DNA of 64,000 nucleotides from Fimbriimonadia bacterium (GTDB lineage: Bacteria > Armatimonadota > Fimbriimonadia > Fimbriimonadales > JABRVX01), in assembly GCA_041483895.1 (NCBI GenBank), contig JBGPGO010000001.1, forward strand, positions 160,001 through 224,000. The letters run 5' to 3'. Below are positions 12,387 to 46,408 of this stretch, in pieces (the stretch's first letter is position 1; every line of letters begins with the position of its first letter). The position numbers and the translations under genes are program-made. The notes beneath the pieces were generated by a model. That model was given only the letters and a program-made list of their open reading frames with translations. It was not told the DNA's origin and searched no databases.

Positions 12387-12431
12387 TGGTGGTGCATTCT
12401 GGACGCATTTCGAACTTCCGCAAGGCTCTGA
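12387..12431 (+). other. Distal att junction carrying the displaced recombinase 3' end (WWCILDAFRTSARL*)
   Basis: TGGTGGtgcattctGGACgcattTCGAACt resembles the tRNA-side TGGTGGaggctagcGGACTCGAACc. The frame is open to TGA at 12429-12431. Confidence 0.65.
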
Positions 12432-12722
12432 GGCCGGCCGGCAGCAACCTGAGAAATGAGGCTCTGTGGCTATCTTGGCTCGCAAATCGGGACGAAGAAG
12501 CTATCTATGGCCGTCACGGGACACGTTTTCGAGTTGCACGTGCTCGTCAGCGAATGCTAGGCAATGCGGAATGGGCAATCTCGCGGCAGCAGATTTCGCC
12601 GACCGATTGCGACCTTCTGAGCCGCAGTTCGACCTGGCAATGTCCAAATGGTATGCTGAGTTACTCCCGCGTACGGTATTGATGGCCCTTCCGTCCACTT
12701 GGTCCGCTGGTTCAACTGCAAG

Positions 12723-12885
12723 GCTGTCGGCTAGGCTGTCAACTGGGCTGTCAAAATGGGCTCGCCTGACAATTTCCGCGCGGTATCGTGGGGCAATTCC
12801 CTGTTCGATTTTGACCGCCTTGTCGTCCGCACTCCCAAATTGTTGATTTGAAGCGCTGTCGGCTAGGCTGGCAATTGGGCTGTCA
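12723..12885. repeat. Two 31-bp direct repeats, each built of three GCTG(T/G)C units at 12-bp period
   Basis: gctgtcggctaggctgtcaactgggctgtca (12723-12753) vs gctgtcggctaggctggcaattgggctgtca (12855-12885), 29/31 identical. Confidence 0.85.
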
Positions 12886-13022
12886 GATAAACTCTCGGAA
12901 TCGATTTGTTCTCCACCCGCATAACCGGGCGGATTAGAGGAATCTTATGGTCACGTGAAGTAGTGGATGGTATTCTGGCCTACTTCCGGTCGAATCGTCT
13001 TAGAACTCCAGGAGTGAATTGA

Positions 13023-16000
13023 GTGGTATCCGACACCAAACCCGGCTTACCCCGAGTAGGTATGCTGGCCATTATTCGGAATAGACGTGCCGTCGTGGAT
13101 TCCGTCGAGCCCTACGACGGCGCAGGCGGTCGCCTGCATATGGTCCGCCTGGAATACATGGACGCTGACGGCATCCAGAGCGACCAAATCCTTTGGGAGC
13201 GCGAGGTTTCCACAAAGCTCATTGAACCCGCGCAACTCCCGCGAATCTCTCAAGCTGGACCAATGTCTGGAGACAATTTCGATGCGCTGCAGCGAGCAGT
13301 TCGGTGGACCGCCCTAAGTCGATTCGGCGTTGCGGAGGAAGGGACATGCGTGCCTATAGCCGCCCCTCTCTTCGGTTCGATTCAGGTCGAAGATTATCAG
13401 CTTGTGCCGATCGCGAAGGCGCTGGATATGCCGAGGGTATCGCTTCTCCTGGCAGATGATGTGGGTCTCGGCAAGACCGTCGAGGCTGGCATGCTCCTGA
13501 CAGAACTGATCGTCAGACGTCGAATTCAACGCGTGTTGGTGTTGACGCCAGCATCGCTCTGCAGCCAGTGGCAGCAGGAGTTGCTCGAAAAATTCGCCCT
13601 GTCATCCGACCTGGTTGATCGAGCGTCAACCTACTATCTTCAGAAGAGGCTTGGCCTTGACGCCAATCCTTGGAGAACATTCCCTCGCATAATTTCCTCT
13701 TATCACTACCTTCGCCAAGCGGATGTACTGGAGCAGTTTCTCTCAGTGTGCATCGGCCACATGAAGCATGCGCGGATGCCCTGGGATCTATTGATCGTTG
13801 ATGAAGCTCATAACCTGACTCCCTCCGGATTTGGTGACGACAGTGAACTTGCCAAGATGTTGAGGCGTATTGCCCCATATTTCGAACACAAGCTGTTTCT
13901 TACGGCAACACCCCACAATGGCCACACACGCAGCTTCACGGGTCTGTTAGAACAACTCGATCCTGCGCGATTCACTCAAAAGTCCGAGTTCAGCCAATCG
14001 GAGAAAGACCGGATCAAGCAGGTTGTTGTTCGCAGGCTTAAGCACGAGATCATCGAGCAAGATCGTCGGATCGGCCGGATACCGCGTTTCTCCGAGCGCC
14101 ATCTCACGCCTCTCCCATTGTTTCTTGGTTCAGAAGAACAGAGGGTATCGACGGCATTCCGCGAATTTCGGAAAGCAGCTGCGCGCGATCGTTCGGATCC
14201 TGCTTCGTTCGCAATCGAAGTGCTGAACAAGCGATTACTGTCGTGTCCTTATTCATTCGCCGACTCTTGGCACCGGTTCAGAGAAGGTGTCGAACAAGAG
14301 GAAGCCGACCAAAGGGTGGTCATCGCAGCGCGAAGAGCCGCAGAAGAAGAGGTAATCGATGAGCAGGAAGCAGAAATCCGTGTCCGACATGCAGTTAAAG
14401 CAACAGGTGCTTGGTTCAAAGGGCTTGCAGAGATTCACGCGGATCGAATAGGTAATGTGGACGCGGCTCTTATGGCATTGGGGCTGTCACCCGGCGAAGA
14501 TGGCGATGCCAAAGCGCCCAGTTCTGATGCCCGCTTCGACCGCCTTCTAGATCTCATCCGGCAAAGGCTGCGTATAGGCGATACGTGGGTTGAAGATGAA
14601 CGCCTAGTCATCTTCACGGAATACAAGACGACCCTAGACTATGTTGAACGCAGGCTCCGAGAAGAGTTTCCCGACGAACTGCGCATTAGAGTTCTATTTG
14701 GAGGCTTGCCGGAGGAGGTGCGCGACAAGGTCAAGCAGGCCTTCAATGATCCTAACGATCCTGTACGAATCCTAGTTGCAACCGATGTTGCATCAGAGGG
14801 CTTGAACCTTCAGGAGACGGCAAGACTCTTATTGCACTACGACATTCCGTGGAATCCGGCTCGGCTGGATCAGCGTAATGGCCGCCTAGACCGCCACGGC
14901 CAGGCGCGCGACGTGGAGGTCTTCCATTTTACGAGCGACGAAGATGCCGATCTCAAGTTCCTCTCCTACGTCATCGGCAAGGTTAACTCCATTCGCGAAG
15001 ATCTAGGATCCATGGGAGAAGTCTTCGATCGCGCATTTGAGCGCCGTTTCCTCGACAACATCGACGCATCCCTTATTGAGCGTGGCATCGAGGACGGGGT
15101 CCGTGAACGAAAGGACCGAGCTGAGTTCGAACACGATCAGGATCTGGGCGGCGAGGAGCTTAGTGCCGTCGCAAGCTTCAAGGATGAAATTGACCTCAAT
15201 CCTGATACGATACGATGGACAGTGGAAACAGCCCTAGGTATAAAGGTCGGCCTGCCAAGGCTCGAAGACGTCGGAAACGGTCGTTACCGCCTCCTGCAGC
15301 CTCTGCCTGCGCGATGGGAAAACGTACTGGACGATTCAGTGCGAATTAACAGTGGACGCGAACTGGGGCCGCTGCGCCAGCTCCTTTTCGATCCCGAATG
15401 CCTGGTTGAGGTTAGAAGTGGGCGCCCCATTTTCCGGAGTGCAAAGGATACCGTGTTGCTGCATCTCGGACATCCAGTCGTGAAATTGGCACTGGCGACG
15501 ATCGCGCGTGAACGGTTCCCCGGTGCCGCAGACGGACCAACCCAAAGCCGGTGGACCGTCCGGCACGGTGACCTGCCATCCGGCGCAGAGGCTCTTGTTC
15601 TCCTAACGGTCGAAGAGATGGGTGTAAACCTGTTGCGGGAACCTTTTCATCACTGGGTTCGCACACTACGATTTCCTGTCGCCGACGGAACGGTCGGTGA
15701 TCTGCTCCCTCATGTGGCCGCAGCGAAGGACAGACCCGCACCGACTGTCTTGGATGCATCGGCCATTCGTCGCGCTCAGGACATTTGGGATGAGGTAGAG
15801 AGCGAAATTGCCGACAGATTGCAGAAGTACTCAATCGTGCTGAACGACGAAATCTCAGCGAAGATGATCGATGTGCGGCAAGCAGCCCAATCCGACGAAA
15901 AGAAGCGTTTCACCAACCGAATTGCCGAGGTCAAGCAACAAATGTCGGAGACCAAGATCAACACAATCGCCCGCGAGCGAAACAAGCTGATTGCAGAAAT

Positions 16001-16217
16001 GATGCAGGGGGTGCTCTTCGACGAAGATAGACGCATCGCTGAGGAACGGCTGAAGGATTTGGAATCAGAACTCGAGAATCGCCAGCGAAACCTGCGAGGC
16101 CTGTTGGAGTATCTGGAAAATGAGCGCGATCGAGTACTTGATTACGTTGTTCCACAACGGTTTGCCCTAAGGGGCCAGGTTCACGTCTTCCCTGTAACAG
16201 TGGAGATCCGCCTATGA
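13023..16217 (+). CDS. SNF2-family helicase, DISARM DrmD-like
   Basis: LLADDVGLGKT, DEAH, TATPH, ATDVASEGLNLQ, QRNGRLDRHGQ, and a C-terminal coiled coil. Confidence 0.88.
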   Translation: MVSDTKPGLPRVGMLAIIRNRRAVVDSVEPYDGAGGRLHMVRLEYMDADGIQSDQILWEREVSTKLIEPAQLPRISQAGPMSGDNFDALQRAVRWTALSRFGVAEEGTCVPIAAPLFGSIQVEDYQLVPIAKALDMPRVSLLLADDVGLGKTVEAGMLLTELIVRRRIQRVLVLTPASLCSQWQQELLEKFALSSDLVDRASTYYLQKRLGLDANPWRTFPRIISSYHYLRQADVLEQFLSVCIGHMKHARMPWDLLIVDEAHNLTPSGFGDDSELAKMLRRIAPYFEHKLFLTATPHNGHTRSFTGLLEQLDPARFTQKSEFSQSEKDRIKQVVVRRLKHEIIEQDRRIGRIPRFSERHLTPLPLFLGSEEQRVSTAFREFRKAAARDRSDPASFAIEVLNKRLLSCPYSFADSWHRFREGVEQEEADQRVVIAARRAAEEEVIDEQEAEIRVRHAVKATGAWFKGLAEIHADRIGNVDAALMALGLSPGEDGDAKAPSSDARFDRLLDLIRQRLRIGDTWVEDERLVIFTEYKTTLDYVERRLREEFPDELRIRVLFGGLPEEVRDKVKQAFNDPNDPVRILVATDVASEGLNLQETARLLLHYDIPWNPARLDQRNGRLDRHGQARDVEVFHFTSDEDADLKFLSYVIGKVNSIREDLGSMGEVFDRAFERRFLDNIDASLIERGIEDGVRERKDRAEFEHDQDLGGEELSAVASFKDEIDLNPDTIRWTVETALGIKVGLPRLEDVGNGRYRLLQPLPARWENVLDDSVRINSGRELGPLRQLLFDPECLVEVRSGRPIFRSAKDTVLLHLGHPVVKLALATIARERFPGAADGPTQSRWTVRHGDLPSGAEALVLLTVEEMGVNLLREPFHHWVRTLRFPVADGTVGDLLPHVAAAKDRPAPTVLDASAIRRAQDIWDEVESEIADRLQKYSIVLNDEISAKMIDVRQAAQSDEKKRFTNRIAEVKQQMSETKINTIARERNKLIAEMMQGVLFDEDRRIAEERLKDLESELENRQRNLRGLLEYLENERDRVLDYVVPQRFALRGQVHVFPVTVEIRL

Positions 16218-19200
16218 CTACTCTCCGAGGCGACGTCGACCAGCCAAATTGGTGGTCTTCCCTCAAGCACGGCGGTTTGCTTATTGCACCTTCCAAGCTG
16301 ATGGAATGCTTTCCGTATGGCACATTTCCGCTAAGGCGCGACAAGACCGAAGCGTTACGTCGTTCCGTCACGCTTGCACGAGCAGGAGGGAGCGATGCCA
16401 CATCTCGTCTTCTTGATACGGTCTTCGATGAAGTTCTCGGCTTAAGTCCTGACGGCTGGAAGAAGGGCAACGCGGTAGACGCAAGCTGGGGTCACAAGAT
16501 GGCGAATGGGCGAAGTGTTAAGCCGAGACGTATTTGGATGGCACCGAACGGCTGGACCTTCCCTGTCTTTGTCACCGAAGATTCGCAGCGATTGGGAATC
16601 GGCCGCGGTCGCAGGGAGATATCGCTCGTAGTCGAGTGGCTCCGTCGAACAGGCCGCCTGATCGCGCTCATTACGAACGGTGTGCAATGGCGGCTGATCC
16701 ACGCTGGCAGCGATTACGAGGCGTGGTGCGAATGGGATGTAGAGTTCTGGTTTGAATCCGGCAATCCCGCGCCACAGCTCGATGCACTACGAATCCTTCT
16801 GGGATCGGACTCGCTTACTGCAGCGGAACCGGATGAACTTCCGGCTCTTGTTCAAGCGATCCTGGCGTCCCGGCAAGGCCAAGCAGAATTATCCACTTTG
16901 CTCGGGGAACGGGTTCGACAAGCGGTCGAACTCACAATTCGAGAGAGTGCCGGAACCCTTAGGGACCTTGACAATGATGCGGAAACCCGCAGGGCAATTT
17001 ACGTGGCTGCAACTCGCGTAGTAATGCGTTGTGTAGTCGTTTTGTTTGCGGAAGCACGTGATCTTCTGCCTCGAGATAACCCCATCTATCATGGCTCATA
17101 TGGAATCCAAGGATTGCGAGAGCAATTAGATCGACAGGCGGGGGGCAGGGGACACGAGAGATTGCGAGACCGATGCTCAGCATGGCCGCGAATGCTATCG
17201 CTCTTCCGTCTGGTCTACGAAGGATCGGATCACGAAGCCCTACCTGTGTTGAGATATGGTGGCGGCCTCTTCGTGCCTGGTGACAGAAACTCTAAGGACT
17301 TGATTCTGAAGGCGCTCGGTGCATTTGAAGACACACGTAATACTCCCGCGGACGCTACGGTCCATAGAATCCTTGAGCTGCTCTGCCGTAGCAAAGTGAA
17401 AGTCCGTCAGGGGCGAGGCAGTATTTGGGTGGAAGCGCCTGTGGATTTTTCTGACCTCTCATCAGAGTACATCGGCATCCTCTATGAAGGGCTATTGGAC
17501 TATGAGTTAAGGAGGACGGAAGCCGACGAGTCGATTCTTTTCGTGAACGTTGGCGATCAGCCGGCATTGCCTCTTTCGAGATTGGAACAAATGGATGATA
17601 AGACGCTGTCTTCCCTAGTCGAGAAATTCAAGAAGTCAAGAAAATTGGATGGCGAAGACGCCGAAGAAAACGACGACGAAGAAGAGCCATTAGAAGATGA
17701 GGAAAGCGAGGAAGAGCCAGAAGTACCAATCGAAGTGATTCCGGATCAGGACGTCGACGACGGCGATGAAGCGCGTCTTTGTCGTGAACGGGCTCATGCC
17801 TGGGCCATACGAGCCGTTATGGCAGGCAAGCTTGTCGCCAAGCCTCGCGGAAGACTCACTGCGGAATCACAGGCGCGATACGAGCAAGCGGTGGAAGCGG
17901 CCGCTCACGCTTTGGTTACACGGATTGTGCTGCCCGGTGATTGGTTCCTGGTCCGATGGGGTGGAACGAGAAAGGGCGCTGGGACATTCTACACTCGACC
18001 ACAACTTGCTGTGCCAACGACACGTCGAACTCTGCAACCGCTCGCCTATGACCCTTTGCGCAAGGAAATCGACCAACGCTCCGGGCTCGAAATTATCCGT
18101 GAGTGGGCGCCGAAGCTGCCCGAGGAGATCCTCAGCCTAAAGGTTTGTGATCCCGCGATGGGCTCCGGGTCCTTCTTGGTGGCAGCACTCCGGTTTCTGA
18201 CGCAAGCACTTTATGAAAGCCTCTATCATCATGGCCGCATCGAGGCTCACGGCGAAAGTGCTCTGTGCAGACTGGCGGATGGAAAAGACACGAACAGCCT
18301 GCTCGAAGAAACCCTCCCCGTGTCGCCCGACGATCCGGATTTTGAAGAGCGATTGAAGGCAAGGCTCAAACGGTATGTGGTGGAGCGCTGCCTTTACGGG
18401 GTGGACCTCGACCCATTGGCGGTCGAACTGGGCCAAATGGCGCTATGGATCGAGACGATGGACCGCGAACTGCCTTTCGAATTCCTGGATCACAAGCTCA
18501 AGTGCGGCAATTCCCTTGTCGGCTGTTGGTTCGACCGGTTTCTTGATTATCCCGTGCTTGCCTGGAACCGGGAAGGCGGCGACAAGGAACACAGGAACGG
18601 TACGCATTTTGAGAGGGCGGCATGGACAAACGCAATCAAGTCGAAGCGCGAGGCTGTAAAGTCCGACATGGCGCGACTGCTGGGCCAGCCTGAGTTATTT
18701 GCCGAGAACAAGGCTGCACAGTTCGCACTTGAAACTCGGGAGAAAGCGCTGAAGGACGTCGAGTATGTCCACAGCCTATCCATCGGCGATGAGGACACAC
18801 GATCCCAGGCCTACAAGGATCTTTTCCACGGAAGTCAAGCGATAATGCGTCTTCGCCGTGACCTCGACACCTGGTGTGCGATCTGGTTCTGGCCTTCGGA
18901 CAAGCTCGCGGATGCACCGATGCCACTGTCGCAGTTCAAACCTGTCTCCGAGACAAATCTCATCGTCGAGGATATTGCGAGGGTTCATCGCTTCTTCCAC
19001 TGGGAGTTGGAGTTTCCGGATGTTTTTCGCAGCAATGGCTCAGGCTTCGATGCGGTCGTTGGAAATCCGCCTTGGGAGACGCAAAAGCCGAATTCCAAAG
19101 AGTTCTTCTCCAACCATGACCCACTCTATCGATCGTACGGCAAACAAGAAGCCATCGGAAAACAGAGAGAGTTGTTCACAGAGACGTCCGAAATAGAGAA

Positions 19201-21253
19201 GGAGTGGCTTGAATACTCCTCGCGATTCAAGGCTCTCTCCAACTGGACGAAGAATGCCGCGCGTCCATTCGGAGATCCGGAAGAAGTCGGCGAGAACTTT
19301 AGCTTTACGAGATCGTCCACACGAAATCTCGCTTCTCACGCTACTTGGCAAGAGCGACGGAAGAACCGCAAGGGCTACGCCGATCCGGCACACCCCTTCC
19401 GCCATCAGGGCTCGGCGGACATAAACACCTACAAGATGTTCCTGGAGATTTCACATGCTCTGGTAAGCACCTCTGGTCGAATAGGGATGATAGTTCCTTC
19501 AGCGGTGTACACAGATAAGGGCTCAACAGAGTTGCGCGAACTGTTCCTCAAGCATTGTCGGTGGGAATGGCTATTTGGATTCGAGAATCGCGACGCCATC
19601 TTCGACATTCACCGCTCGTTCAAGTTCTGTCCGATCATTGTTCAAAAAGGGGGGGAAACGAAGGCGATTCGGACCGCTTTCATGCGCCGTTCGCTGCACG
19701 ATTGGGAGGTGGGAGACAAGTTCGCCATTGCTTACCCAAGGGAGCAGGTCGAACTGTTTAGCCCAGCGTTCAAAGCGATTCTCGAACTACAGTCCCAGCG
19801 CGATCTGGAGGCAATAGAGAGGCTTTATTCAAACAGCATCTTGCTTGGCGACGAGGGTCCAGATAGCTGGGGTATCAAGTACCGGACTGAGTTTCACATG
19901 ACGAATGACTCCAAACTGTTCCCGCCGCGTCTGCAGTGGGAATCTCAGGGACTCCGTCCGGATGCCTACGGGCGTTGGCTTCAATGGTCTCGATCCGTAC
20001 AAGAAGCGCCAATAGCCGGGGAGGTCGGTTGGGTGCCTCTCTTAGGAGCCGGGTGGGTCCCCGAGTCAGACGTCGTGGAAGTGGCGTTGCCGGTTTATGA
20101 AGGACGCATGGTCGGTCAGTTCGACTTCAGCCAGAAAGGGTGGGTTAGCGGTAAGGGTCGAACAGCCGTTTGGCGAGAAATCCCTTGGCAGGCTAAGGCG
20201 TTGGAACCGCAGTTCCTTATGAGTGCTGATGACTACGCAGGAGCAAAGGATAAGGACGGGCTGCCAAAGGCACGGCGCGGGATCAAGGTTGGCTATATGG
20301 ATGTTGCCTCGGCCACGAACTCACGCACGATGATCGCAACCCTCGTGGCGGACATGCCATGCGGGAACAAGGTGCCTGTACTGAGCACACGGATTCCGGC
20401 CAGGGTTCCTGTCCTTTGCGCGGTCTTGAACTCCTTCGTGTACGACTACTGCCTCCGGCAGAGGCTCGGGGGACTTACCATCAATTACTTCATCTTGGCC
20501 GAGACGCCCGTACCCAGGCTCACCGGCGATGGTGAGACAATTGCGGACCTGGTCAGCACGCTAACACTTCGTTTGGGAGCGACCCACTGCAGCTTCTCGC
20601 TAGTGTTAGACCAGCTTCCGAGAGTCGCCAGGGCTTGGGCCGACAGAAGATGGTGGGCACTTACACCTCATGAGCGAACTCGACTCCGATGCATTCTGGA
20701 TGCTGTGGTGGCTGAGTTGTTTGGGCTCGACTACGATGATCTGTCGTGGATTTTACGGGACTGTGATCGACCTATCAACGTCTTACGTGACAACGCTTTC
20801 TCCCGCCGCCTCGATCCCAAGGGGTTCTGGCGGGTGGACAAAGAGAAGGACCCTGCACTCCGACACACCGTGCTCTCTCTGATGGCGTTTCATAGCCTGA
20901 AGGAGATGGGCCTTCGGGCGTTTGTCGAGCAGAATGACGGAGAAGGGTGGTTTTTGCCCGAGAAATTGTGTCTCACCGACTACGGATTCGGCCACGACGA
21001 GCAGGCGAGGGAACACCAGCCGGTTGCGTCCAGACTTGGACCCCGGTTCCTGCCATGGCAACTGGAACTCTCCTCCGAGGAATCGTGGGAAGAGTGCGAA
21101 CGGCATGCTGAGAATCTGCGTCGGCTTCTAGGCGAGCCGGAAAAGAGAACGCCTTCTTCAACCGAAGGCACCGCCTCTAATCTCTTCGGTGGACCGGTCG
21201 CCACCGATCTGTTCGGGAACGCACTTCCGGTTCGGAAAGGAAAAATAGGCTAG
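16214..21253 (+). CDS. Eco57I/type IIG-like N6-adenine DNA methyltransferase (DrmMI-like)
   Basis: GILYEGLL, RKGAGTFYT, DPAMGSGSFL (motif I), YGVD, NPPW (motif IV), N-terminal LITNGVQWRLI, TRD-like C-terminal half. ATGA overlap with the SNF2 gene. Confidence 0.88.
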   Translation: MTTLRGDVDQPNWWSSLKHGGLLIAPSKLMECFPYGTFPLRRDKTEALRRSVTLARAGGSDATSRLLDTVFDEVLGLSPDGWKKGNAVDASWGHKMANGRSVKPRRIWMAPNGWTFPVFVTEDSQRLGIGRGRREISLVVEWLRRTGRLIALITNGVQWRLIHAGSDYEAWCEWDVEFWFESGNPAPQLDALRILLGSDSLTAAEPDELPALVQAILASRQGQAELSTLLGERVRQAVELTIRESAGTLRDLDNDAETRRAIYVAATRVVMRCVVVLFAEARDLLPRDNPIYHGSYGIQGLREQLDRQAGGRGHERLRDRCSAWPRMLSLFRLVYEGSDHEALPVLRYGGGLFVPGDRNSKDLILKALGAFEDTRNTPADATVHRILELLCRSKVKVRQGRGSIWVEAPVDFSDLSSEYIGILYEGLLDYELRRTEADESILFVNVGDQPALPLSRLEQMDDKTLSSLVEKFKKSRKLDGEDAEENDDEEEPLEDEESEEEPEVPIEVIPDQDVDDGDEARLCRERAHAWAIRAVMAGKLVAKPRGRLTAESQARYEQAVEAAAHALVTRIVLPGDWFLVRWGGTRKGAGTFYTRPQLAVPTTRRTLQPLAYDPLRKEIDQRSGLEIIREWAPKLPEEILSLKVCDPAMGSGSFLVAALRFLTQALYESLYHHGRIEAHGESALCRLADGKDTNSLLEETLPVSPDDPDFEERLKARLKRYVVERCLYGVDLDPLAVELGQMALWIETMDRELPFEFLDHKLKCGNSLVGCWFDRFLDYPVLAWNREGGDKEHRNGTHFERAAWTNAIKSKREAVKSDMARLLGQPELFAENKAAQFALETREKALKDVEYVHSLSIGDEDTRSQAYKDLFHGSQAIMRLRRDLDTWCAIWFWPSDKLADAPMPLSQFKPVSETNLIVEDIARVHRFFHWELEFPDVFRSNGSGFDAVVGNPPWETQKPNSKEFFSNHDPLYRSYGKQEAIGKQRELFTETSEIEKEWLEYSSRFKALSNWTKNAARPFGDPEEVGENFSFTRSSTRNLASHATWQERRKNRKGYADPAHPFRHQGSADINTYKMFLEISHALVSTSGRIGMIVPSAVYTDKGSTELRELFLKHCRWEWLFGFENRDAIFDIHRSFKFCPIIVQKGGETKAIRTAFMRRSLHDWEVGDKFAIAYPREQVELFSPAFKAILELQSQRDLEAIERLYSNSILLGDEGPDSWGIKYRTEFHMTNDSKLFPPRLQWESQGLRPDAYGRWLQWSRSVQEAPIAGEVGWVPLLGAGWVPESDVVEVALPVYEGRMVGQFDFSQKGWVSGKGRTAVWREIPWQAKALEPQFLMSADDYAGAKDKDGLPKARRGIKVGYMDVASATNSRTMIATLVADMPCGNKVPVLSTRIPARVPVLCAVLNSFVYDYCLRQRLGGLTINYFILAETPVPRLTGDGETIADLVSTLTLRLGATHCSFSLVLDQLPRVARAWADRRWWALTPHERTRLRCILDAVVAELFGLDYDDLSWILRDCDRPINVLRDNAFSRRLDPKGFWRVDKEKDPALRHTVLSLMAFHSLKEMGLRAFVEQNDGEGWFLPEKLCLTDYGFGHDEQAREHQPVASRLGPRFLPWQLELSSEESWEECERHAENLRRLLGEPEKRTPSSTEGTASNLFGGPVATDLFGNALPVRKGKIG

Positions 21254-21256
21254 GCG

Positions 21257-35110: not shown

Positions 35111-35144
35111 TTTGGTATCGATAATGGCCCTTTTCGATACCAAA
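35111..35144. other. dif-like palindromic recombination site upstream of tyrosine recombinase
   Basis: tttggtatcgataa-tggccc-ttttcgataccaaa: 14-bp arms (13/14 complementary) around a 6-bp spacer, adjoining the AAGGAGG SD. Confidence 0.7.
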
Positions 35145-35158
35145 GGAGGCAGAAAACC

Positions 35159-35608: not shown

Positions 35609-35625
35609 AGCGCGGCGAGCCTCAG

Positions 35626-35677
35626 TGTAAGCAGCGGAGAGAACCGGGCCCACTTGGGCGGAGCAAATATGTACCAC
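35626..35677 (+). repeat. IS21-family-like terminal sequence (left of CBASS)
   Basis: Begins TGT, followed by two GCGGAG..AA......CCAC units. 35/44 identical to 41054-41097. Confidence 0.6.
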
Positions 35678-35687
35678 TGGACGGCGC

Positions 35688-35930
35688 TATGCGCTGATGC
35701 TGGAACTGGAGCAAATCAACCTGCCGCTGGAGTATTTGGACACGTTCCCTGCCAGGTTCGAGGCGATCACGGCTGCGAACATCCCGCACGTCGCGCGATA
35801 ATATCCGGCAAAGAACCGCATCCAGCTGATTTCAGCAGTGGAACGCAAACAGATCGAGGCGGGAGTGCGCAAATACGGGGCTACCGAAATCGTTTTGGAC
35901 GGCCAGCTTGACGAGAGAAGAAACCGCTGA
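35688..35930 (+). pseudogene. Remnant resembling the C-terminus of an M16 (pitrilysin-like) peptidase
   Basis: Manual translation: LELEQINLPLEYLDTFPARFEAITAANIPHVAR*YPAKNRIQLI...KQIEAGVRKYG, with an in-frame TAA at 35799. Confidence 0.5.
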
Positions 35931-37589: not shown

Positions 37590-37618
37590 TGCCGGAAACG
37601 GCGGAAGTAGGTGAATAG

Positions 37619-38695
37619 ATGGATCTCCCGTACTATTTTAGTGAATTCGTGTCGCGGATCCGACTGGCCGACATGGCTAACTATGTCGACGCCCATAAAA
37701 TTCTTCGTGATCGGCTGAAAGCGTACCCATCGCTCAAGGAAATCTATATTTCTACGTTCCTCCAGGGCAGCTACCGCAGACATACGGCGATCCGCACGGT
37801 GGCCGGGAAAAGTGCCGACATAGATGTCGTCGTTGTCACGAACCTAAGGGAAGAAGAAAAGACACCGACTCAGGCGATGGCCATCTTTCGGCCTTTTCTC
37901 GACGAATACTATTCGGGGCAATGGCGTTATCAGGACCGCTCGATTCTCGTTAGTCTTCCCGACCTGGAACTCGATTTGGTCGTGACCTCAGCGCCATCGG
38001 AATCTGCCAAAGCGGTATTGTTGAGCGATCCAGTCATTTCATCGTTCGATGTCACTGATGACAGGCACGATGCATTTTGGAGCAACATTGGTGGCAGCAA
38101 CGGTATTTCTGCCGCAGAATCAGCCACGTGGAAATTAGATCCTTTGCGGATTCCAGATCGTAGTGCCAAAGAATGGACATCAACTCATCCGTTGGACCAA
38201 ATCGCATGGACATGGAAGAAGAATAAGGGCTGCGATTTCAACTATTTAGGTGTTGTTAAGATATTGAAGTGGTGGCGTCGAATCACTTACGACGAGCCCA
38301 AATATCCGAAAGGTTACCCCCTGGAGCATATCACTGGGTATTGCTGTCCGGACTCCATCAACGGGCTGGCCCAAGGCATCACCGAGACACTTGAATCGAT
38401 TGTGGCCACGTTCGCGGTAGATTTCCGGTTCGGCAAGGTGCCCGTGCTGCCGGATCATGGGGTTCCGGCCCACAACGTGCTTAAGCGGCTCACTGGAGAG
38501 GATTTTGCAACGTTTTACGAAAAGGCAAGCGATGCAGCAGCGAAAGCGCGCCTCGCGCTAGATGAACCAGACAAGGACAAGAGCATCCAATATTGGCGAG
38601 AACTGCTCGGTGATGAGTTTGGCGAGGATCCCGACGAATCTGAACGCATTCTTGCACCGGCGGTGGCGAAACCCAGAACGGAGCGATTTGCCTAG
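37619..38695 (+). CDS. CD-NTase (SMODS/cGAS-DncV-like cyclic oligonucleotide synthase), CdnD-like
   Basis: FLQGSYRRHTAIR...DIDVVV, ELDLVVT, W..THP..Q, VKILKWWR, PKGYPLEH, and flexible tail ending KPRTERFA. Confidence 0.92.
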   Translation: MDLPYYFSEFVSRIRLADMANYVDAHKILRDRLKAYPSLKEIYISTFLQGSYRRHTAIRTVAGKSADIDVVVVTNLREEEKTPTQAMAIFRPFLDEYYSGQWRYQDRSILVSLPDLELDLVVTSAPSESAKAVLLSDPVISSFDVTDDRHDAFWSNIGGSNGISAAESATWKLDPLRIPDRSAKEWTSTHPLDQIAWTWKKNKGCDFNYLGVVKILKWWRRITYDEPKYPKGYPLEHITGYCCPDSINGLAQGITETLESIVATFAVDFRFGKVPVLPDHGVPAHNVLKRLTGEDFATFYEKASDAAAKARLALDEPDKDKSIQYWRELLGDEFGEDPDESERILAPAVAKPRTERFA

Positions 38696-38699
38696 GCAC

Positions 38700-40493
38700 G
38701 TGTCCTTTGAAATTCCAAAGCCGATACAGATGGGGTTGCGCGAAGCCGACGGGAGCGTGCCCCAAGTTCACCTCGTACCACCAGTCATCGCTGTTCAAGA
38801 AGGCACTTTCGCCCTTGAATTTAGGATCATATCAGAACACACGAGCCAGTTCGTGCCCGAATCGACGACGTGGTACGCAATTTTGCAAGAAGACTACCCA
38901 TACGGCAAAATCGACATTTTTCCGGCAAAGGAAGGCGGGATTACTTGCACCTTTCCGCATCAGCAGTTCAACGGTCCTAATACCTCCAGCGATTATCCGT
39001 GGCGAAGCGGCAACATTTGCGTTACGGAAACCGGATATCGCATCGGTCGCGAGGTCATTCTTGCAGAGCCATTCAATAGTAAACGTCTAGCATGGCATCT
39101 TGAACAGGCGAGAGACTGGATCCAATGTGCCGCAAGAGGGCTTCTGTCGCAACCAGGAGACCCTTTTGAATTGCCGGACTTTCCTCGGTCCGAAAACGCG
39201 ACGTCCTTTGCATATTGGGAAGACCGTACGACCTTTTCTGCATGGTCAGAGATTAACGAGGTCTGCGGTCTAGCTGAACTGTGTTCTGTTCCCGGGAATA
39301 GTAGCATCCGCGCAATTAAGTCATTCAATTCGGGTCGCGACACAATTGATCTCAGACCACCCTGGGGAAAGTTTCTGAAGGACAGAACACCAACGCAAGC
39401 CGCAATATGGCTCCGATTCCCAAGCGTTCCTATTCTCCCACCTTGGCAAGTTCCTGTGACAATCGGACAGCTCATCGATGCCGGCAACGTCGTCGGACTA
39501 GATGTCACTGATCAAGTTAAGGCAGCGATGCGCCACTGCCCAGCCTCATCTATTACATCATTCCTCGTCGGCATCCCGATACCCGAGTATTTTGGCGGAG
39601 TGCCGATTCAGTGGCATTGGCAGGCGATGGAGTTCGGGCCGTCGCTGCTTGATACCCAATCCGCGAAGAGAGTGAGACGCCGAGCCACCTTCTACAAAAG
39701 GGATATCGAGACATTGACGGAGAGGTCAAGAGGTATCGCGTGGTTTCCTTCAACAAACTGGTCTAAGGATCAGCTAATGGTGCGGGGTGCCATAGAGGCT
39801 ATTCAGGATAAGTTTATCCTGGTAATTGGCGTTGGCGCGATCGGGTCTGTAGTCGCTGAACTCCTCGTACGCGGAGGTTCGAAACGAGTAATGCTGGCTG
39901 ATGCAGAACGGTTCACTGTTGGCAATCTCGTTCGGCACATCGCTTCGATCCCACATGTTATGTTTCAAAAATCCATTGCGATGGAGCATCGTTACAATAA
40001 CACAGTTCCCTATGCGAATGTCGACAGTTCTATTAGCCGATTTCGAGCCAATGGAGCAGACTTCCCCGGGCACGCTCCAAATCTCGACCTAATTGTCGAT
40101 TGCACAGGAGAGGACGCCGTCATCGAGGGAGTCCAATTGTCCGCGTTGGAGGGGGATCTCCCATTCGTATCCATTTCTCTTGGTTGGGAAGCCAAGAGGT
40201 TGTTTCTGTACAGCGCACCCAAGCAATTGATCAATGTCGAGTGGTTTCAAGAAAAGTGGAACGAGGTTACCGAAGACGAGCGCAAGGTTCGCCGCAGAGA
40301 GGACTTTACAATGGAAGGTATTGGCTGTTGGCATCCGGCGTTTCCCGCACCCATTCATCGCGTTTGGTCGTTGGCTGCTCTTTCCGTTGTAGCCCTCGAA
40401 AAACTGCTCATTGAGGGCATCAATAACCCAGGTTTCCATGTGATCGAATTTGAAGCGGAAAGCGGCTCAGCATTGATCACCAGGATTCCGTGA
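38700..40493 (+). CDS. cap2: CBASS Cap2 E2-E1 (ThiF) fusion
   Basis: E2: YPYG...TFPHQ...GNICV. E1: VIGVGAIGS, GNLVRH, IVDCTG, GCWHP. GTG start 4 nt after the CD-NTase stop. Confidence 0.88.
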   Translation: MSFEIPKPIQMGLREADGSVPQVHLVPPVIAVQEGTFALEFRIISEHTSQFVPESTTWYAILQEDYPYGKIDIFPAKEGGITCTFPHQQFNGPNTSSDYPWRSGNICVTETGYRIGREVILAEPFNSKRLAWHLEQARDWIQCAARGLLSQPGDPFELPDFPRSENATSFAYWEDRTTFSAWSEINEVCGLAELCSVPGNSSIRAIKSFNSGRDTIDLRPPWGKFLKDRTPTQAAIWLRFPSVPILPPWQVPVTIGQLIDAGNVVGLDVTDQVKAAMRHCPASSITSFLVGIPIPEYFGGVPIQWHWQAMEFGPSLLDTQSAKRVRRRATFYKRDIETLTERSRGIAWFPSTNWSKDQLMVRGAIEAIQDKFILVIGVGAIGSVVAELLVRGGSKRVMLADAERFTVGNLVRHIASIPHVMFQKSIAMEHRYNNTVPYANVDSSISRFRANGADFPGHAPNLDLIVDCTGEDAVIEGVQLSALEGDLPFVSISLGWEAKRLFLYSAPKQLINVEWFQEKWNEVTEDERKVRRREDFTMEGIGCWHPAFPAPIHRVWSLAALSVVALEKLLIEGINNPGFHVIEFEAESGSALITRIP

Positions 40494-41002
40494 GCGTGAA
40501 CTACGACCAATTGGAATTCGTCGGCAAGATCTCTACAGTCCTCGTCATCGTCTCATCCACCGCACTCTCGAAAATGCTAATGGAATGCTCCGTAGACCCA
40601 GATATTGAGACCGGAGGTGTTCTGCTGGGCCGGTTTCGGACAAAGGACGCCGCAGTTCTTGTGAAGGAAGCCACCGGTTCCCCAGCCGATTCGGCTAAGT
40701 CTCCTGGGGAGTTCATACGAGGAACTGAAGGATTAGACGATACCTTGCAACGAGCATATAATTGTTCACTTCAATATGTCGGTGAATGGCATTTCCACCG
40801 CACGGCAGAACCCAGGCCGAGCGATCGTGACCGGCGCACAATGATGGGCATAACTAAGAGCGATAACTACCACATGCTATATCCGATCCTAGCGATCGTT
40901 TCAAACAAAAAGGCTTGTTGGACCATTGGCATCTACCGCTTCGAACGGAGTGGAATGTGCGAGTGCTGTGGTACAGCATTATTCGCCACTACTGGGATAT
41001 AG
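40490..41002 (+). CDS. cap3: CBASS Cap3 JAB/JAMM isopeptidase
   Basis: ETGGVLLG, YVGEWHFH...PSDRD. GTGA overlap with cap2. Confidence 0.88.
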   Translation: MSVNYDQLEFVGKISTVLVIVSSTALSKMLMECSVDPDIETGGVLLGRFRTKDAAVLVKEATGSPADSAKSPGEFIRGTEGLDDTLQRAYNCSLQYVGEWHFHRTAEPRPSDRDRRTMMGITKSDNYHMLYPILAIVSNKKACWTIGIYRFERSGMCECCGTALFATTGI

Positions 41003-41332: not shown

Positions 41333-42328
41333 CTATTGTTCGGGATGCGGAAGCCTGACAGCGGCGTCCGTCCGAGTGAATTCCTCCCAGTCTTCATCGC
41401 TGATCTTGTAATTCTCACGTTTCTCGACGTACTGGCGAATCTTGTCCATATCCACCACGTCATGGTGAACTCCAACCCCGACAGGGTCGACGGGCTGTTG
41501 AGCCGCACTTCCCGAAGAGCTGGACAGCTGATAAGCGGCAAGCCCGAGGCCCGTTAGCTCCTCATCGTACTGTTGGCATTCGGGACGAGTTTTGAACTTA
41601 GTCGAAGATTCGATCTCTACCAGCCATTTCCTAATCCTCGAAAAAGCCGTATGCATCCGGTGTTTCATAGGCTTTCTATCGTCGGGATTTTCGACCAATT
41701 CACCTTCTTTCGCAAACATCAGTACAGTTTCTCGTTCCATCTCGGAGGGTTTGACGCAATGCAGGGCAAACGCCTTCAGGTTCCTTTGTTCGGCCCCCGT
41801 GAGAGTCGGTCGGGGGCGACCGTGCACTAAGGGCACGAGCAATTCGCCGTGGTTGCCACGCTCATTCTTAAGATCTGCGCGTAGCGTGATGAGGGCAGAC
41901 TCGACCGCCTTGACTTCGCGAAGAGCATCTTCCACGCATTGAAGAGCGGTTTGCCAGGGTTGTTTGAATAGACGCTTTGCCAATCGAGTCGGCAGGTTCT
42001 CGGCTAGTTTCACCACTGCTTCGCGCTTTTTGCAAGTGGAGTAGCTGATGCGCGTCCAAGCGCTTGCTTTCGAGAATCCTTCTTCCCGCAGATCCTCTAA
42101 TTTCCGGAGCCATGCAAACCACATCCGCACCAAGCATTTTGGCCCAATCTCGTAGGGCCCACCGATCTCTTCGATGTCGAGAAACCGGCTACGGTTCCCG
42201 TCTCTCGCGTGACGACGGAGATTCAATGCCTCGAGTTGTTGTTGCAGACGATTGTCCGTAGCAACGATCAAATGGTGCATCAAGAAGGCGAGCTTGATGT
42301 CGTCTTGTTGGCTCTTCGATATCTCCAT
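41333..42328 (-). CDS. Hypothetical protein, divergent from the recombinase operon
   Basis: 331-aa ORF with GAGGA SD. No family recognised. Confidence 0.6.
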   Translation of the reverse strand: MEISKSQQDDIKLAFLMHHLIVATDNRLQQQLEALNLRRHARDGNRSRFLDIEEIGGPYEIGPKCLVRMWFAWLRKLEDLREEGFSKASAWTRISYSTCKKREAVVKLAENLPTRLAKRLFKQPWQTALQCVEDALREVKAVESALITLRADLKNERGNHGELLVPLVHGRPRPTLTGAEQRNLKAFALHCVKPSEMERETVLMFAKEGELVENPDDRKPMKHRMHTAFSRIRKWLVEIESSTKFKTRPECQQYDEELTGLGLAAYQLSSSSGSAAQQPVDPVGVGVHHDVVDMDKIRQYVEKRENYKISDEDWEEFTRTDAAVRLPHPEQ

Positions 42329-42564
42329 TTTTTTCCTCTCACAAGAAACTCAGGCTCTAGATTGTGACACCCCTCCTCGTGAGATGCTCAATCCTATGCG
42401 CTCAGAGAGTTCAACTCCAAAGGACGGAGAAGAGACCGCCGGTGTGCCGGTGGATGGAAGTGAGCACGAGCGCCGCGACCAACACGAGGCGGAAAAGGTG
42501 TTGTTGCGGTTCTTCTCGATCCTCTTGCACATTTCTGAGAGCAAATCCAACGGAGGAGCAAAAC

Positions 42565-42759
42565 ATGAAGGGACCTAAGAAACGGGAGGCGTCGCGTCGC
42601 ACCCCTCATCCTAAGGACATGGAAGTCGTGAGAAGTGCTGGCTCGCTGCTTGCGGAAGCCGCACTACGCGCCGCAATGAACCCAAATCAAGGCGAGCGGC
42701 TAAGCATTGCGGACGCTTTGGATACACCAGTAAACGTCAACCACGAGACATCTGTCTAG
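42565..42759 (+). CDS. Small hypothetical protein upstream of the recombinases
   Basis: GGAGGA SD before ATG 42565, 64 aa MKGPKKRE... Confidence 0.5.
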   Translation: MKGPKKREASRRTPHPKDMEVVRSAGSLLAEAALRAAMNPNQGERLSIADALDTPVNVNHETSV

Positions 42760-42798
42760 CTCTTTTATGCTACGATAAACTTCCAAAGGAGAAAGGTA

Positions 42799-44883
42799 AT
42801 GAATAACACAAACGAAACAAACCGAGCTATGCCGCACGTTGCCATCTATGCGCGTGTCAGTACCGAGGAGCAAGCAAGAGAGGGCTTTTCCATTAAAGTC
42901 CAGCCTCAACAGTGCATTGAGGAACTCGAAAAGCGATTTGGCAGGAACGGCTTCACCCATGAATCGTTCTCAGACGCCGGCAAGTCCGGATCCTCTGGAC
43001 CAAGACCATGGGAGCCCGATCTCCGCAAGCGTGGCGACCGCAAGGGCCTTCACGAGCTATTCGAAGGATTGCGGCAAAAACGGTTTACTCACATCGTTGC
43101 CCTCAGGCGAGATCGGATCTATCGAAACATCGCCAATTGGTTGGCCTTCAAGGCAATTATGTTGCAAGGCGTCGATCTGATATTTGTCTTGGAACCTGAT
43201 GAAGATGACTCACCTTCCGGCGAATTGGCGTCCGGCATGATTGCTTATGTTGCTCAGTATGAGTTGGACAAGACGCGCGAGAATGTCAAGAATGCGCTTC
43301 GTAAACGGGTAGCACAAGGCTACAAGCTCGGCGCCGAATTATATGGTTGGCGCAAACAGGAATCTCACGAGGTCGAAGCGGGAAAGCGCAAGAGCATCGT
43401 ACCGATTGAAGAGGAGCTTTCGATTGTGCGCCAGGTCAAGGACTGGTATCTGTCCGGGATGTCGTACGCTCAGATTGCTGACAAGCTCAACGATCTTGGT
43501 GTACCAAGACGCATAGCAAAGGGCAAGAAATGGGAAAGCTCGACGATTCGCATCTTGCTGTCCAATCCGACGCATGCAGGCTTGATCAAGAATGCCGACG
43601 GGGACCTCGTACCCGCGGAATTCTATGAGAGCCGTGCGTACGATCCGGAAGTCTACTACCGCATCCAACAGGTCAAGGCGGAACGCAATCGGCGCTTCAA
43701 GGGACTAGCGGCCACCGAACCCCATCGACTGTTCGCAAAAGTTGTGAGTTGCGGAATATGTAGCAAGGCTTTGCGATCCATGATGCAAGGGGACGGCTAC
43801 GCCTACCGATGCAACCAACGCCGATTCGGCCCGGCCCAAGGCCATGTGTATATCGCGGCAAAGACTCTTGAGAAAGCCATACTTTCAGAGCTCGAACGGG
43901 TATCTCAATTGCCCGATGTCTTGTCCGAAGCGGAGAATTGCATCCGTGAGTATTCGGATTCGAACGCAGGCCAACTCGAAGCAGAACTGAGGCGTCTGAA
44001 ACAACATGTCGCCGTTCTGGACTGTAGGAAGAAGGAATTGCAGCGGTCGGTTGTGCGAGGGGAGATCCAACCGAAGGAGTTTCAGCCGATCAGCGATTGC
44101 ATTGAAGAAGCTCGCAGCGGACCGCTAGCATCGATCACTGAGTTAGAGATGCAGCTGACGAATCGCACTTCTCATGAAGAGACATGCCGCAGAGCCATTG
44201 AGGCGCTTCGCTCGTTCCCGACGCTCTGGGGGAACCTCACCGACACCGAAAAGCGCGAGTTCCTCCGGATTGTTGTCGAAAAGGCGGTCCTAAACAAGGA
44301 TGAAAATGAGATGTGGCTGGAGCTCAAACTTTGCATGCTCGATGAAGTAAGGATCGCGGTGCCCCGCCGGGCTATCGACGGCAGGTACGAGCGTCCTCCA
44401 GGTGCTGAGGGGCTTACAGAGCGGCAACTTGCCATTCTATGGCACGTACTTCAAGGCCGCGGACCAAAGGAAATCGCTTCGCATTTTGAAGTGACGCCAA
44501 CCTCCGTCAATGAGATGGGCCGCAAGATCCGGCAGCACTTAGGAGTTGCCGATCTGGTGTCGGCAGCCGCCATGGCTCAGGAGGCGATCAACCGATATGA
44601 GCGCTTCTTGCCAGTCGAAGGCGCCTATTTCCGCAAATATAACTCGCTTCGTCTTCGCGTGACGGAGTATCGTGTCCTAACGGCGCTGGCCGCCGGGTCA
44701 AGTTGGGACGACATTTGCCAACAGGCCGGAATGGACTTACCTCGCCTGAAGAAGGCGTTCGCGAAGGCGGTTGCCAAACTGGGGACCGACGATCCCAAAG
44801 AAATGCTTCGCATTGCTAAGGACCGGAACCTGCTGCCATCGAGACTAAAGCGAAAGGATGAAAATGGGAAGGACCTCCTCTAA
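42799..44883 (+). CDS. Large serine recombinase with two C-terminal LuxR-type HTH domains
   Basis: YARVSTEEQ, RRDRIYRN, recombinase domain, CGIC..YRC zinc ribbon, coiled coil, then LTERQLAIL..G...KEIA and LRVTEYRVL.ALAAG. Confidence 0.88.
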   Translation: MNNTNETNRAMPHVAIYARVSTEEQAREGFSIKVQPQQCIEELEKRFGRNGFTHESFSDAGKSGSSGPRPWEPDLRKRGDRKGLHELFEGLRQKRFTHIVALRRDRIYRNIANWLAFKAIMLQGVDLIFVLEPDEDDSPSGELASGMIAYVAQYELDKTRENVKNALRKRVAQGYKLGAELYGWRKQESHEVEAGKRKSIVPIEEELSIVRQVKDWYLSGMSYAQIADKLNDLGVPRRIAKGKKWESSTIRILLSNPTHAGLIKNADGDLVPAEFYESRAYDPEVYYRIQQVKAERNRRFKGLAATEPHRLFAKVVSCGICSKALRSMMQGDGYAYRCNQRRFGPAQGHVYIAAKTLEKAILSELERVSQLPDVLSEAENCIREYSDSNAGQLEAELRRLKQHVAVLDCRKKELQRSVVRGEIQPKEFQPISDCIEEARSGPLASITELEMQLTNRTSHEETCRRAIEALRSFPTLWGNLTDTEKREFLRIVVEKAVLNKDENEMWLELKLCMLDEVRIAVPRRAIDGRYERPPGAEGLTERQLAILWHVLQGRGPKEIASHFEVTPTSVNEMGRKIRQHLGVADLVSAAAMAQEAINRYERFLPVEGAYFRKYNSLRLRVTEYRVLTALAAGSSWDDICQQAGMDLPRLKKAFAKAVAKLGTDDPKEMLRIAKDRNLLPSRLKRKDENGKDLL

Positions 44884-46408
44884 CGGAAAATCGAGGCGCT
44901 CCACTGCCGTGATCTATGCGCGCGTTAGTTCCAAGGAGCAAAACGACGAAGGCTACAGCATTCCCGCTCAGCTTCGGCTCCTGCGGGATTATGCGCGCGA
45001 GAAGGGCATTGAGGTCGTTGAAGAATTCACGGATGCTGAAACGGCAAAGCAAGCCGGTCGAACTTCGTTTGCCAAGATGCTTCAATTCATCAAGGCAAAA
45101 TCTATCTCCACGATACTTGTTGAGAAGACCGATCGTCTCTACCGAAACTTTGCCGACTTCGTCAAGGTCGACGAATTGGGGTCCGAACTCCATTTTGTTA
45201 AAGAAGGTCAGGTCATCAGCGTCGAATCGCGGAGCGCCGATAAGTTCATGCATTCGATTCGGGTGTGCATGGCGAAGAACTACGTCGACAACTTAAGCGA
45301 AGAGATTCGCAAGGGCATGGCAGAGAAGGCGAGGCAAGGAATCTATCCGACCCACGCGCCCCTTGGCTACCTCAATGCTCCCGACGGTCCGAGGAAGAAG
45401 ATCGTACTGGATCCGGATCGAGGAGTACTCGTCACTCGCCTCTTCGAAGCCTATGCAAGCGGCTCATACTCTCTGACGCAATTGACACAGTTCGCTCGCG
45501 AGATCGGATTGGTGACAAAGAAGCATCACCAGGTGCAAAGGAGCAACATCGCCCTGATGCTCCAGAGCCCTGTCTATTCCGGCCGAATCGTATGGAACGG
45601 CGAGAGCTACCCAGGCACCCACACACCGCTTGTCGACAAGCTGACCTTCGATCGAGTCCAGGACATACTGCACGGCCGGCGCAGTAAGGCCGGGTTTGGC
45701 CATAGGGAGTTTGCATTCAAAGGGCTCGTATATTGCCGATGCGGCGCGGCCATGACCGGCGACATTAAGAAAGGGAAATACATCTACTACCGATGCAATG
45801 GGCGCAAAGGGCTGTGCGACAAGCCGAGTGTGAAAGAAGAGGTTTTCATTGACCACATCCGGGATCTGCTCTCAAGGCTGTCGTTGCCTCCTGAGATATT
45901 TGAATGGCTGAGGACGGCGCTCAAATCAAGCTTGGACGACGAACAACGATTTCGCCAACTAGAAGACGAGCGGATGGAAACGAACGCAGCACAGATCAAA
46001 AAGCGCCTCGAGACGCTCTACCTCGACAAGATTCAAGGCGATGTGTCAGCCGAGTTTTATCGCGACACCCGGCAGAAGTGGGAAGAGGAACTAGACGATA
46101 TTCGGGCCCGCCAGGCTGCGATGAGCCGGACTGAGGGCGCATATTACGACGATGGACTTCAATTGCTCGAACTCGCGAGAACAGCCGCAGACAGGTACGA
46201 ATCGGCCTCCGTGAGCGAGAAACGGGAACTCTTACAATGTATCTGTTCGAACTGCATCTTTGACGGCAGCACCATCTCCGTCAACCTGCGAAAACCGTTT
46301 GATTTGCTCCTAAAAGCGCCCGAATTCGGCAGCGTGCCTAATGCCGCAAAATGCCCAGATTCCCCAGCAAATCAAGATTGGTGGAGGCTAGCGGACTCGA
46401 ACCGCTGA
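44858..46408 (+). CDS. Large serine recombinase (integrase); 3' end runs antisense into tRNA-Ala
   Basis: YARVSSKEQ, KTDRLYRN, APLGY, CRCG..YYRC..C. The terminal WWRLADSNR* is encoded by the tRNA reverse complement. Confidence 0.92.
   Translation: MKMGRTSSNGKSRRSTAVIYARVSSKEQNDEGYSIPAQLRLLRDYAREKGIEVVEEFTDAETAKQAGRTSFAKMLQFIKAKSISTILVEKTDRLYRNFADFVKVDELGSELHFVKEGQVISVESRSADKFMHSIRVCMAKNYVDNLSEEIRKGMAEKARQGIYPTHAPLGYLNAPDGPRKKIVLDPDRGVLVTRLFEAYASGSYSLTQLTQFAREIGLVTKKHHQVQRSNIALMLQSPVYSGRIVWNGESYPGTHTPLVDKLTFDRVQDILHGRRSKAGFGHREFAFKGLVYCRCGAAMTGDIKKGKYIYYRCNGRKGLCDKPSVKEEVFIDHIRDLLSRLSLPPEIFEWLRTALKSSLDDEQRFRQLEDERMETNAAQIKKRLETLYLDKIQGDVSAEFYRDTRQKWEEELDDIRARQAAMSRTEGAYYDDGLQLLELARTAADRYESASVSEKRELLQCICSNCIFDGSTISVNLRKPFDLLLKAPEFGSVPNAAKCPDSPANQDWWRLADSNR

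Follow-up and report, generated by a model that had tools for sequence, protein, structure and literature searches.

A serine integrase gene that spans its own attachment site at the tip of a tRNA-Ala gene in a Fimbriimonadia bacterium

The integrase gene and the ends of the island

The 64,000-nucleotide stretch analysed here (the window; contig JBGPGO010000001.1, positions 160,001 to 224,000 of assembly GCA_041483895.1, from a Fimbriimonadia bacterium) contains an anti-phage defense island that abuts the 3' tip of a tRNA-Ala(TGC) gene. The island measures 33,992 bp from core to core and is bounded by two copies of the hexamer TGGTGG, both read directly in the sequence, and the gene that crosses its right border encodes a large serine integrase, here called LSR2 (Table 1). 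The right core is the CCA end of the tRNA gene on the opposite strand, and the last nine residues of the LSR2 open reading frame (ORF), WWRLADSNR, are antisense tRNA-Ala. When the LSR2 frame is instead continued from the left core at 12387 it reads WWCILDAFRTSARL, followed by a stop at 12429-12431; integration exchanges the last 12 residues of LSR2 for seven that are derived from the tRNA. These observations agree with an original prediction made from the letters of the sequence, which had described a tRNA-derived C-terminus from WW onward, the same core about 34 kb away leading into an in-frame tail, and a preserved CCA end. The span of 12387 to 46408 given there holds on the left and requires correction on the right, where the island ends at the core (46379-46384) and 46408 is the end of the LSR2 stop codon within the tRNA gene.

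The tRNA-Ala(TGC) gene is the only gene of its kind called in the assembly, and it is intact with an encoded CCA, which is present in 48 of the 49 tRNA genes of the host genome. With a crossover within core positions 4-6 (see below), the CCA now found on tRNA-Ala would come from a tryptophan codon of the element. A tRNA-Ile(GAT) gene lies upstream of tRNA-Ala, with no rRNA genes evident alongside the pair in the window (46379-46674), and the two genes are unlinked in two genomes of the same family. Beyond the other end of the island, the gene for a 762-aa (amino acid) WD40 repeat protein (10001-12289, minus strand) starts 97 bp outside the left core and runs in the same direction as the tRNA genes; insertion of the island would have parted it from the tRNA-Ile/tRNA-Ala pair.

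The core by itself is at chance level, with 23 occurrences of TGGTGG on the plus strand of the window, and proves nothing about the left end. A degenerate DNA pattern describing the tail, however, has a single match in the 3.95-Mb genome, at window position 12387 on the integrase strand, and its reversed control has none. A weight matrix built from 12 far ends (the island ends distant from the integrase) in other genomes scores this position highest of 7.9 million, at 31.4 bits with the runner-up at 18.2, or 26.1 against 19.7 bits with the core left out, and a matrix from six sites outside the Armatimonadota, again without the core, gives 24.0 against 18.3 bits, scores which are not fully independent as the training sites were chosen by a pattern composed with the window's tail in view. 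A matrix of metagenome sites gives the left end 30.2 bits and the best other site upstream on the contig 7.8. The GC content is 0.595 in the left flank, 0.549 within the island and 0.578 in the right flank, and the drop starts at the left core. The independent part of the evidence for the left end is the pairing of cores in other genomes, described in the next section.

A core of only 6 bp, together with the tandem arrays seen in relatives (G043, G100 and G055), could suggest that the match at 12387 arose by chance or is a relic of another element and that the island ends elsewhere. Such an error is extremely unlikely given the single match in the genome, the lead of more than 13 bits, the low score of the next upstream site and the fall in GC at the core, and the boundary that had been predicted at about 12386/12387 is retained. 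For the anatomy of the locus as a whole, an integrase gene that spans the attachment site attP at the tip of tRNA-Ala, our confidence is very high.

Table 1. Features of the island and its borders, in window positions
Feature	Position	Strand	Remarks
Left core TGGTGG, far end of island	12387..12392	+	Crossover probably within its last three bases
Parked integrase tail (14 codons and stop) and attP arm	12387..12431	+	GGA 12401-12403, TCGAAC 12410-12415
Imperfect direct repeats just inside left end	12698..12885	.	One related copy on contig C11
DISARM-like trio: DrmD-type SNF2 helicase, type IIG/DrmMI methyltransferase, DEAD helicase with MrfA Zn-binding domain	13023..26659	+	
Nested module: 1926-aa beta-helix/Ig/CARDB protein, zf-HC2 anti-sigma, ECF sigma	26802..35141	.	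All genes minus; between two 26-bp near-palindromic sites
Frame with N-terminal part of tyrosine recombinase	35081..35911	+	Similarity to three intact-looking genome copies ends near 35625
CBASS type II: SIR2-SAVED effector, cyclase, E1-E2, JAB	35982..41002	+	
331-aa protein, no known family	41333..42328	-	Profile scans without family; Atlas score 0.76
Two small ORFs, 42396-42578 and 42565-42759	42396..42759	+	Position conserved upstream of LSR1 in relatives
LSR1, large serine recombinase with C-terminal LuxR-type helix-turn-helix (HTH), 694 aa	42799..44883	+	Optional LSR2 partner
LSR2, tRNA-targeting large serine integrase	44858..46408	+	Crosses right core, ends in antisense tRNA
Right core TGGTGG, tRNA-Ala CCA end	46379..46384	+	tRNA arm GGA 46393-46395, TCGAAC 46397-46402
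Host tRNA-Ala(TGC)	46379..46454	-	Intact, CCA encoded
Host tRNA-Ile(GAT), upstream of tRNA-Ala	46599..46674	-	

Paired sites and alternative tails in relatives

A comparison with relatives shows that the arrangement at tRNA-Ala is a family trait. An antisense tRNA or transfer-messenger RNA (tmRNA) end was found at the end of the integrase in 56 of 80 genome loci, all 56 in one codon phase, and about ten of the other 24 loci stop near a contig end. The 56 loci use nine kinds of tRNA plus tmRNA, ten kinds in all (Gln 19, Asn 9, Arg 8, Pro 5, Ala 4, Glu 4, Asp 3, Ser 2, Cys 1, tmRNA 1). The tail pattern was searched in 35 of these genomes, selected for long contigs, and in 227 genomes of the host's order. 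This yielded 14 far-end sites in 13 genomes, all upstream of the integrase and on the same strand, at distances of 9 to 105 kb. In all 14, core positions 4-6, not fixed by the pattern, equal the tRNA at the integrase end, and the cores shared by the paired sites are 6-10 bp long. A fifteenth pair, in G065, was rejected because of a mismatch at its integrase end. In another 13 loci on long contigs, where 40-60 kb of upstream sequence was scanned, six clear and two weak far ends were seen and five loci gave none; G154, with no tRNA called in its piece, was left out of scoring.

The C-termini of 120 homologous proteins fall into 108 of the tRNA-antisense type, as judged by peptide pattern, eight of other kinds and four of the type W-x-x-x-hydrophobic-D/E-x-F/L-R-T. 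The LDxFRT-type tail that had been expected in homologues is found in these four proteins and at many far ends. Natural pairs with different tails also occur. The integrases of L042 and L026 are 95% identical, the former with a helix tail and the latter with a tRNA tail; the viral integrases L112, L114 and L115 are 99-100% identical over 470 aa and have three different endings, the L114 record having a 119-nt terminal repeat and L115 sitting at tRNA-Ala; and the provirus G267 has, as two parts separated by 33 kb, what is undivided in L105. These sequences indicate that both tail states of the integrase exist in nature, in relatives, as would be the case if the C-termini of the circular and integrated states differ in the manner originally predicted. 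The paired sites and two-tail pairs, with the LSR2 frame that continues at 12387, likewise uphold the placement of attP within the integrase gene. A metagenome scan for attP junctions gave at least 119 matches, 80 of which were examined, and an integrase frame running into an intact attP junction was found in 3 of 82 among the matches listed, with mostly far ends otherwise. When the C-terminal 74 residues of P0027 were used as the query of a protein search, two proteins were found among 44 candidates.

Some chromosomal integrases end with the helix tail rather than with tRNA sequence, or belong to tandem arrays (G100 (L308), G055 (L152), L042 and G043), and an older element in such an array may regain its tail from a newer neighbor. 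Among the viral contigs L098-L115, phage subfamilies keep the site register in two other reading frames, with tails of 30-45 residues, and some of the insertions leave the tRNA without an encoded CCA. At seven loci (L175, L180, L202, L203, L206 and L231, ~230 bp in each; L217, ~920 bp) a tail site with a stretch resembling an integrase end precedes the start of an oppositely oriented integrase, which in six of the seven runs toward tRNA-Ser or tRNA-Asp; these are possibly invertible or second sites.

Alignment of the two arms shows how the site may be read. Counted from the first T of the core, GGA occupies positions 15-17 in both the tRNA arm and the parked arm, while a TCGAAC-type motif lies at positions 19-24 in tRNA arms and at 24-29 in far-end arms (13 sites), and the same 5-bp offset is present in the viral subfamilies. 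The zinc-ribbon motif of LI integrase is reported at 11-19 in attB and 16-24 in attP (PMC3783163; this and the other recombination systems cited below are taken as described in the available parts of the publications). The 5-bp shift of TCGAAC matches this known attP/attB rule of serine integrases, which argues that the resemblance to the tRNA T-arm, correctly observed in the original prediction as shared GGA and TCGAAC motifs, marks the DNA site of the integrase rather than mimicry of the tRNA. Numbering of the LI type places the crossover at core positions 5-6. The cut probably falls within core positions 4-6, corresponding to tRNA nt 71-73, because TGG at positions 1-3 is absent in 12 of the 56 relatives, G267 shares positions 4-6 alone, and position 7 differs in this island. 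LSR2 appears to read tRNA nt 60-62 and 53-58 as one half-site. These positions are the most invariant part of a tRNA gene, and this invariance would account for the spread of relatives over many tRNA kinds. The integrase-side and host-side arms have no clear mirror motif, and recognition may be largely one-sided.

The exchanged tail and its possible function

We propose that the island was a circle of 33,992 bp which LSR2 inserted at the 3' tip of tRNA-Ala. The attP in the last codons of LSR2 would be both a DNA site and the code for a short amphipathic helix, which would be borne by the circle form of the enzyme as it integrates and would afterwards be swapped for arbitrary residues of antisense tRNA. 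The chromosomal LSR2, lacking the helix, may be less active or less stable, which would help to hold the island in place, as reported for the tyrosine integrase of myxophage Mx8. The odds that the tRNA-tailed chromosomal enzyme is weaker or less stable than the circle form seem to us about even.

The parked tail has features that would be consistent with a constraint on the peptide. In 78 distinct metagenome far ends, among the matches listed, seven free or partly free codons contain one stop where eight are expected, and hydrophobic residues occupy free codons 4, 11 and 12 in 57/78, 61/78 and 48/78 sites compared with 28% in the flank, although these sites are related and picked by pattern, so that both counts overstate the effect. 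Parked tails have a mean hydrophobic moment of 0.50 versus 0.28, and the third codon positions of the tail are the most variable. In G046 the peptide pattern is kept and the GGA motif is lost. AlphaFold2 models the tail in the L042 C-terminal domain as two helices, with a pLDDT of 76-95 and a pTM of 0.83. From sequences and models together, we read the tail as primarily a DNA site, over which a helix under loose constraint is apparently written. Three further lines were set aside in the course of this analysis. The prevalence of A/C at base 25 (33/36 and 53/61 matches, tallied by eye) was weakened as proof of arginine selection by the same choice in another reading frame; stop counts in the other two frames were discarded as a control, as the pattern itself generates stops there; and a common degron in the integrated tail is unlikely, as tRNA-derived tails span 3 to 74 residues.

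Several observations weigh against this explanation as a whole, beyond the overstated counts mentioned above. The two tails of the window itself have similar hydrophobic moments (0.43 and 0.44), and the tail helix in the full-length AlphaFold2 model of P0035 has a pLDDT of only about 57. Conservation declines after about base 32, where the binding arm ends, and the alignment with solved integrases reaches residue 203-213 of 266 in most rows, with the tail lying beyond. Near-identical viral integrase bodies bear unrelated long tails, and the subfamilies between them use all three frames to read the T[A/C]GAAC motif, so that the DNA site is the primary constraint. The five loci that gave no far end, out of the 13 scanned, lack one within 57-60 kb. 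For the island itself, no circle or empty site was seen in contigs of four sequencing runs over window positions 4000-21000, these being 4 of the 21 DNA runs that contain the organism (no RNA run is listed for it), with a depth of ~3-7 and with contigs that drop rare forms. Two of these contigs, belonging to two runs, span the integrated left junction (X3, 10955-12581, and X4, 12048-12636), and there was no loose contig end at the left core among the matches listed. Comparison with an empty site is uninformative in the two same-family genomes, which are not syntenic here (tRNA-Ala(TGC) is followed by tRNA-Met, with tRNA-Ile elsewhere), and 40 related genomes have nearly no DNA in common with the left flank (short matches in 3/40).

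The main rival to a functional swap is one that is real but neutral: attP would extend into the end of the gene to save space, the peptide would come along as a side effect of the DNA site, and the enzyme would behave alike with either tail. Such an overlap would fit the reading of the motif in three frames and the end of conservation with the binding arm, as well as the variation among paired-site tails (11-35 residues), the variable linker ahead of the invariant W, and a canonical fold that is already complete before the junction. It fits poorly with the avoidance of stops and the hydrophobic periodicity at free codons, the variability of third codon positions, the retention of the peptide pattern without GGA in G046, and the confident tail helices in one model, and we consider a neutral overlap unlikely, if still a serious candidate. 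The main control might instead lie at the level of RNA, since the tRNA-Ile/tRNA-Ala transcript would run head-on into the integrase gene and the last 30 nt of the integrase mRNA are complementary to the tRNA; expression would then be damped and the peptide change secondary. The convergent geometry of the locus and the family-wide overlap speak for this, but it leaves the coding constraint on the parked tail unexplained; we consider it very improbable.

A bolder alternative is that the tail sets the direction of recombination, with the circle-encoded helix docking near the coiled-coil hinge to favor integration and its loss favoring excision, in place of a directionality factor. The extreme C-terminus of SPbeta integrase takes part in directionality, as it lines the factor-binding pocket and its F532 is needed for excision and not for integration (bioRxiv 10.1101/2025.01.03.631226), and no recognisable directionality factor is annotated in the island. 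However, the SPbeta C-terminus aligns with the retained body of the enzyme (model residues to ~211) rather than the swapped tail (231-263), the small ORFs and LSR1 are alternative candidates for such a factor, and an excision-prone chromosomal form would require tight silencing; we regard a directionality switch as improbable. The same doubt attaches to the broader picture of a widespread, undescribed family of serine integrases that would read the invariant T-arm half-site alone, target almost any tRNA gene, and have a direction-setting docking helix added or removed by recombination instead of a directionality factor. If such a docking-helix switch were true, tandem insertions would re-arm older neighbors by lending them the helix.

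Cargo, partner genes and known systems

LSR2 possesses the resolvase (PF00239), recombinase (PF07508) and zinc ribbon (PF13408) domains, Y-R-V-S is invariant across 73 sequences, and models of homologues match SPbeta, Bxb1, phiC31 and LI. LSR2 homologues were found in 36 of the 227 genomes of the host's order and LSR1 in 12, in 11 of which it lies directly upstream of an LSR2 homologue. By this distribution LSR1 is optional to LSR2, and in some relatives (L312-L321) it and the two small ORFs precede LSR2 as a conserved, optional module. The second small ORF has a weak profile match to the ORFs of relatives, and the first is similar by eye only. No recombination directionality factor was recognised in the island, where position alone makes the two small ORFs candidates. 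Another contig encodes a third serine recombinase, whose gene has an internal TGA (G000:C4:168627-169646).

The cargo includes two defense loci. Of the DISARM class I set (DrmD, DrmMI, DrmA, DrmB and DrmC), the DISARM-like trio gave matches to DrmD and DrmMI/IIG, the third gene has DruE as its best profile and matches DrmA weakly, and no match to DrmC was obtained among nine proteins scanned. The CBASS type II operon is complete, with PADLOC E-values of 1e-127 for the cyclase, 2e-149 for E1-E2, 8e-34 for JAB and 2e-38 for the SAVED effector. A 44-bp imperfect direct repeat (35634-35677 and 41054-41097) flanks this operon; its first copy coincides with the point at which similarity in the tyrosine recombinase frame breaks off, and related short matches are present on C2 and C11. 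The 26-bp near-palindromic sites of the nested module (26802-26827 and 35116-35141) have 12 further copies on five other contigs, three of which adjoin copies of the tyrosine recombinase that is broken in the island, and together they look like a second, genome-wide cassette system. The direct repeats just inside the left end are possible binding sites or a possible origin. No phage structural or conjugation domains were found among 24 proteins scanned.

The Islander study of 2015 stated that serine integrases were not known to target tRNA genes (PMC4383910). Our literature search found no paper describing a family of tRNA-end serine integrases as such, with subscription papers mostly outside the search and supplements not covered. 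Large integrase surveys (Mageeney 2020, Durrant 2023) may list family members. Programs that find islands by tRNA fragments presuppose tyrosine integrases and repeats of greater length, and a core of 3-10 bp renders islands of this kind nearly invisible; the parked tail provides a sharp marker for mapping them. As database integrase entries are mostly tRNA-tailed (108/120 by peptide pattern), mining them as genome-engineering tools likely tests the altered form. Should the swap control activity, it would offer a simple two-construct test of regulation in serine integrases without a known directionality factor.

Compared with the well-studied integrases of LI/A118, SPbeta, phiC31 and Bxb1, LSR2 is alike in domain order, fold and the 5-bp shift of the distal motif from attP to attB (PMC3783163, bioRxiv 10.1101/2025.01.03.631226). 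Unlike these, it has a site that shows the motif on the tRNA-side arm alone, with no clear mirror, and an extra, swapped and predicted helix past the canonical end, and no directionality factor was recognised for it. Three published systems already have attP within the integrase gene and a C-terminus that is swapped. In Mx8, attP lies inside int, and the C-terminus acquired on integration reportedly makes the enzyme less active (PMC6070905, PMC4701971); as in LSR2, the att site is within the integrase ORF and the C-terminus is exchanged, but Mx8 uses a tyrosine recombinase in which 112 residues are replaced by 13, rather than a serine recombinase in which 12 are replaced by seven. The streptococcal integrative and conjugative elements (ICEs) at rumA have a single serine integrase with attR inside the gene and an exchanged C-terminus, for which the authors invoked Mx8 in proposing that the two forms differ in function (Ambroset et al. 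2016, PMC4701971), and they differ from the present island in their protein-gene target, the change of frame and their conjugative nature. The 3' end of the Dehalococcoides serine integrase DsiB always overlaps the att site, with the stop outside the island, and its authors suggest that the integrase is fully functional only when on the circle or in a tandem array, the same regulatory idea as proposed here (McMurdie et al. 2011, PMC3146451). DsiB resembles LSR2 as a large serine integrase overlapping its att site at the 3' end. Compared by description, it targets the T-loop of tmRNA with a 20-bp repeat, whereas LSR2 targets the acceptor end of a tRNA with a 6-bp core, tmRNA being the target in 1 of its 56 relatives. 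DsiB also belongs to a six-gene module with a small DsiA, ParB and Mom, in place of which LSR2 has the 694-aa large serine recombinase partner with its HTH tail, and no DsiA-, ParB- or Mom-type domains were found among 24 proteins scanned. The locus described here is one more member of this group of integrases that carry attP within their own genes.

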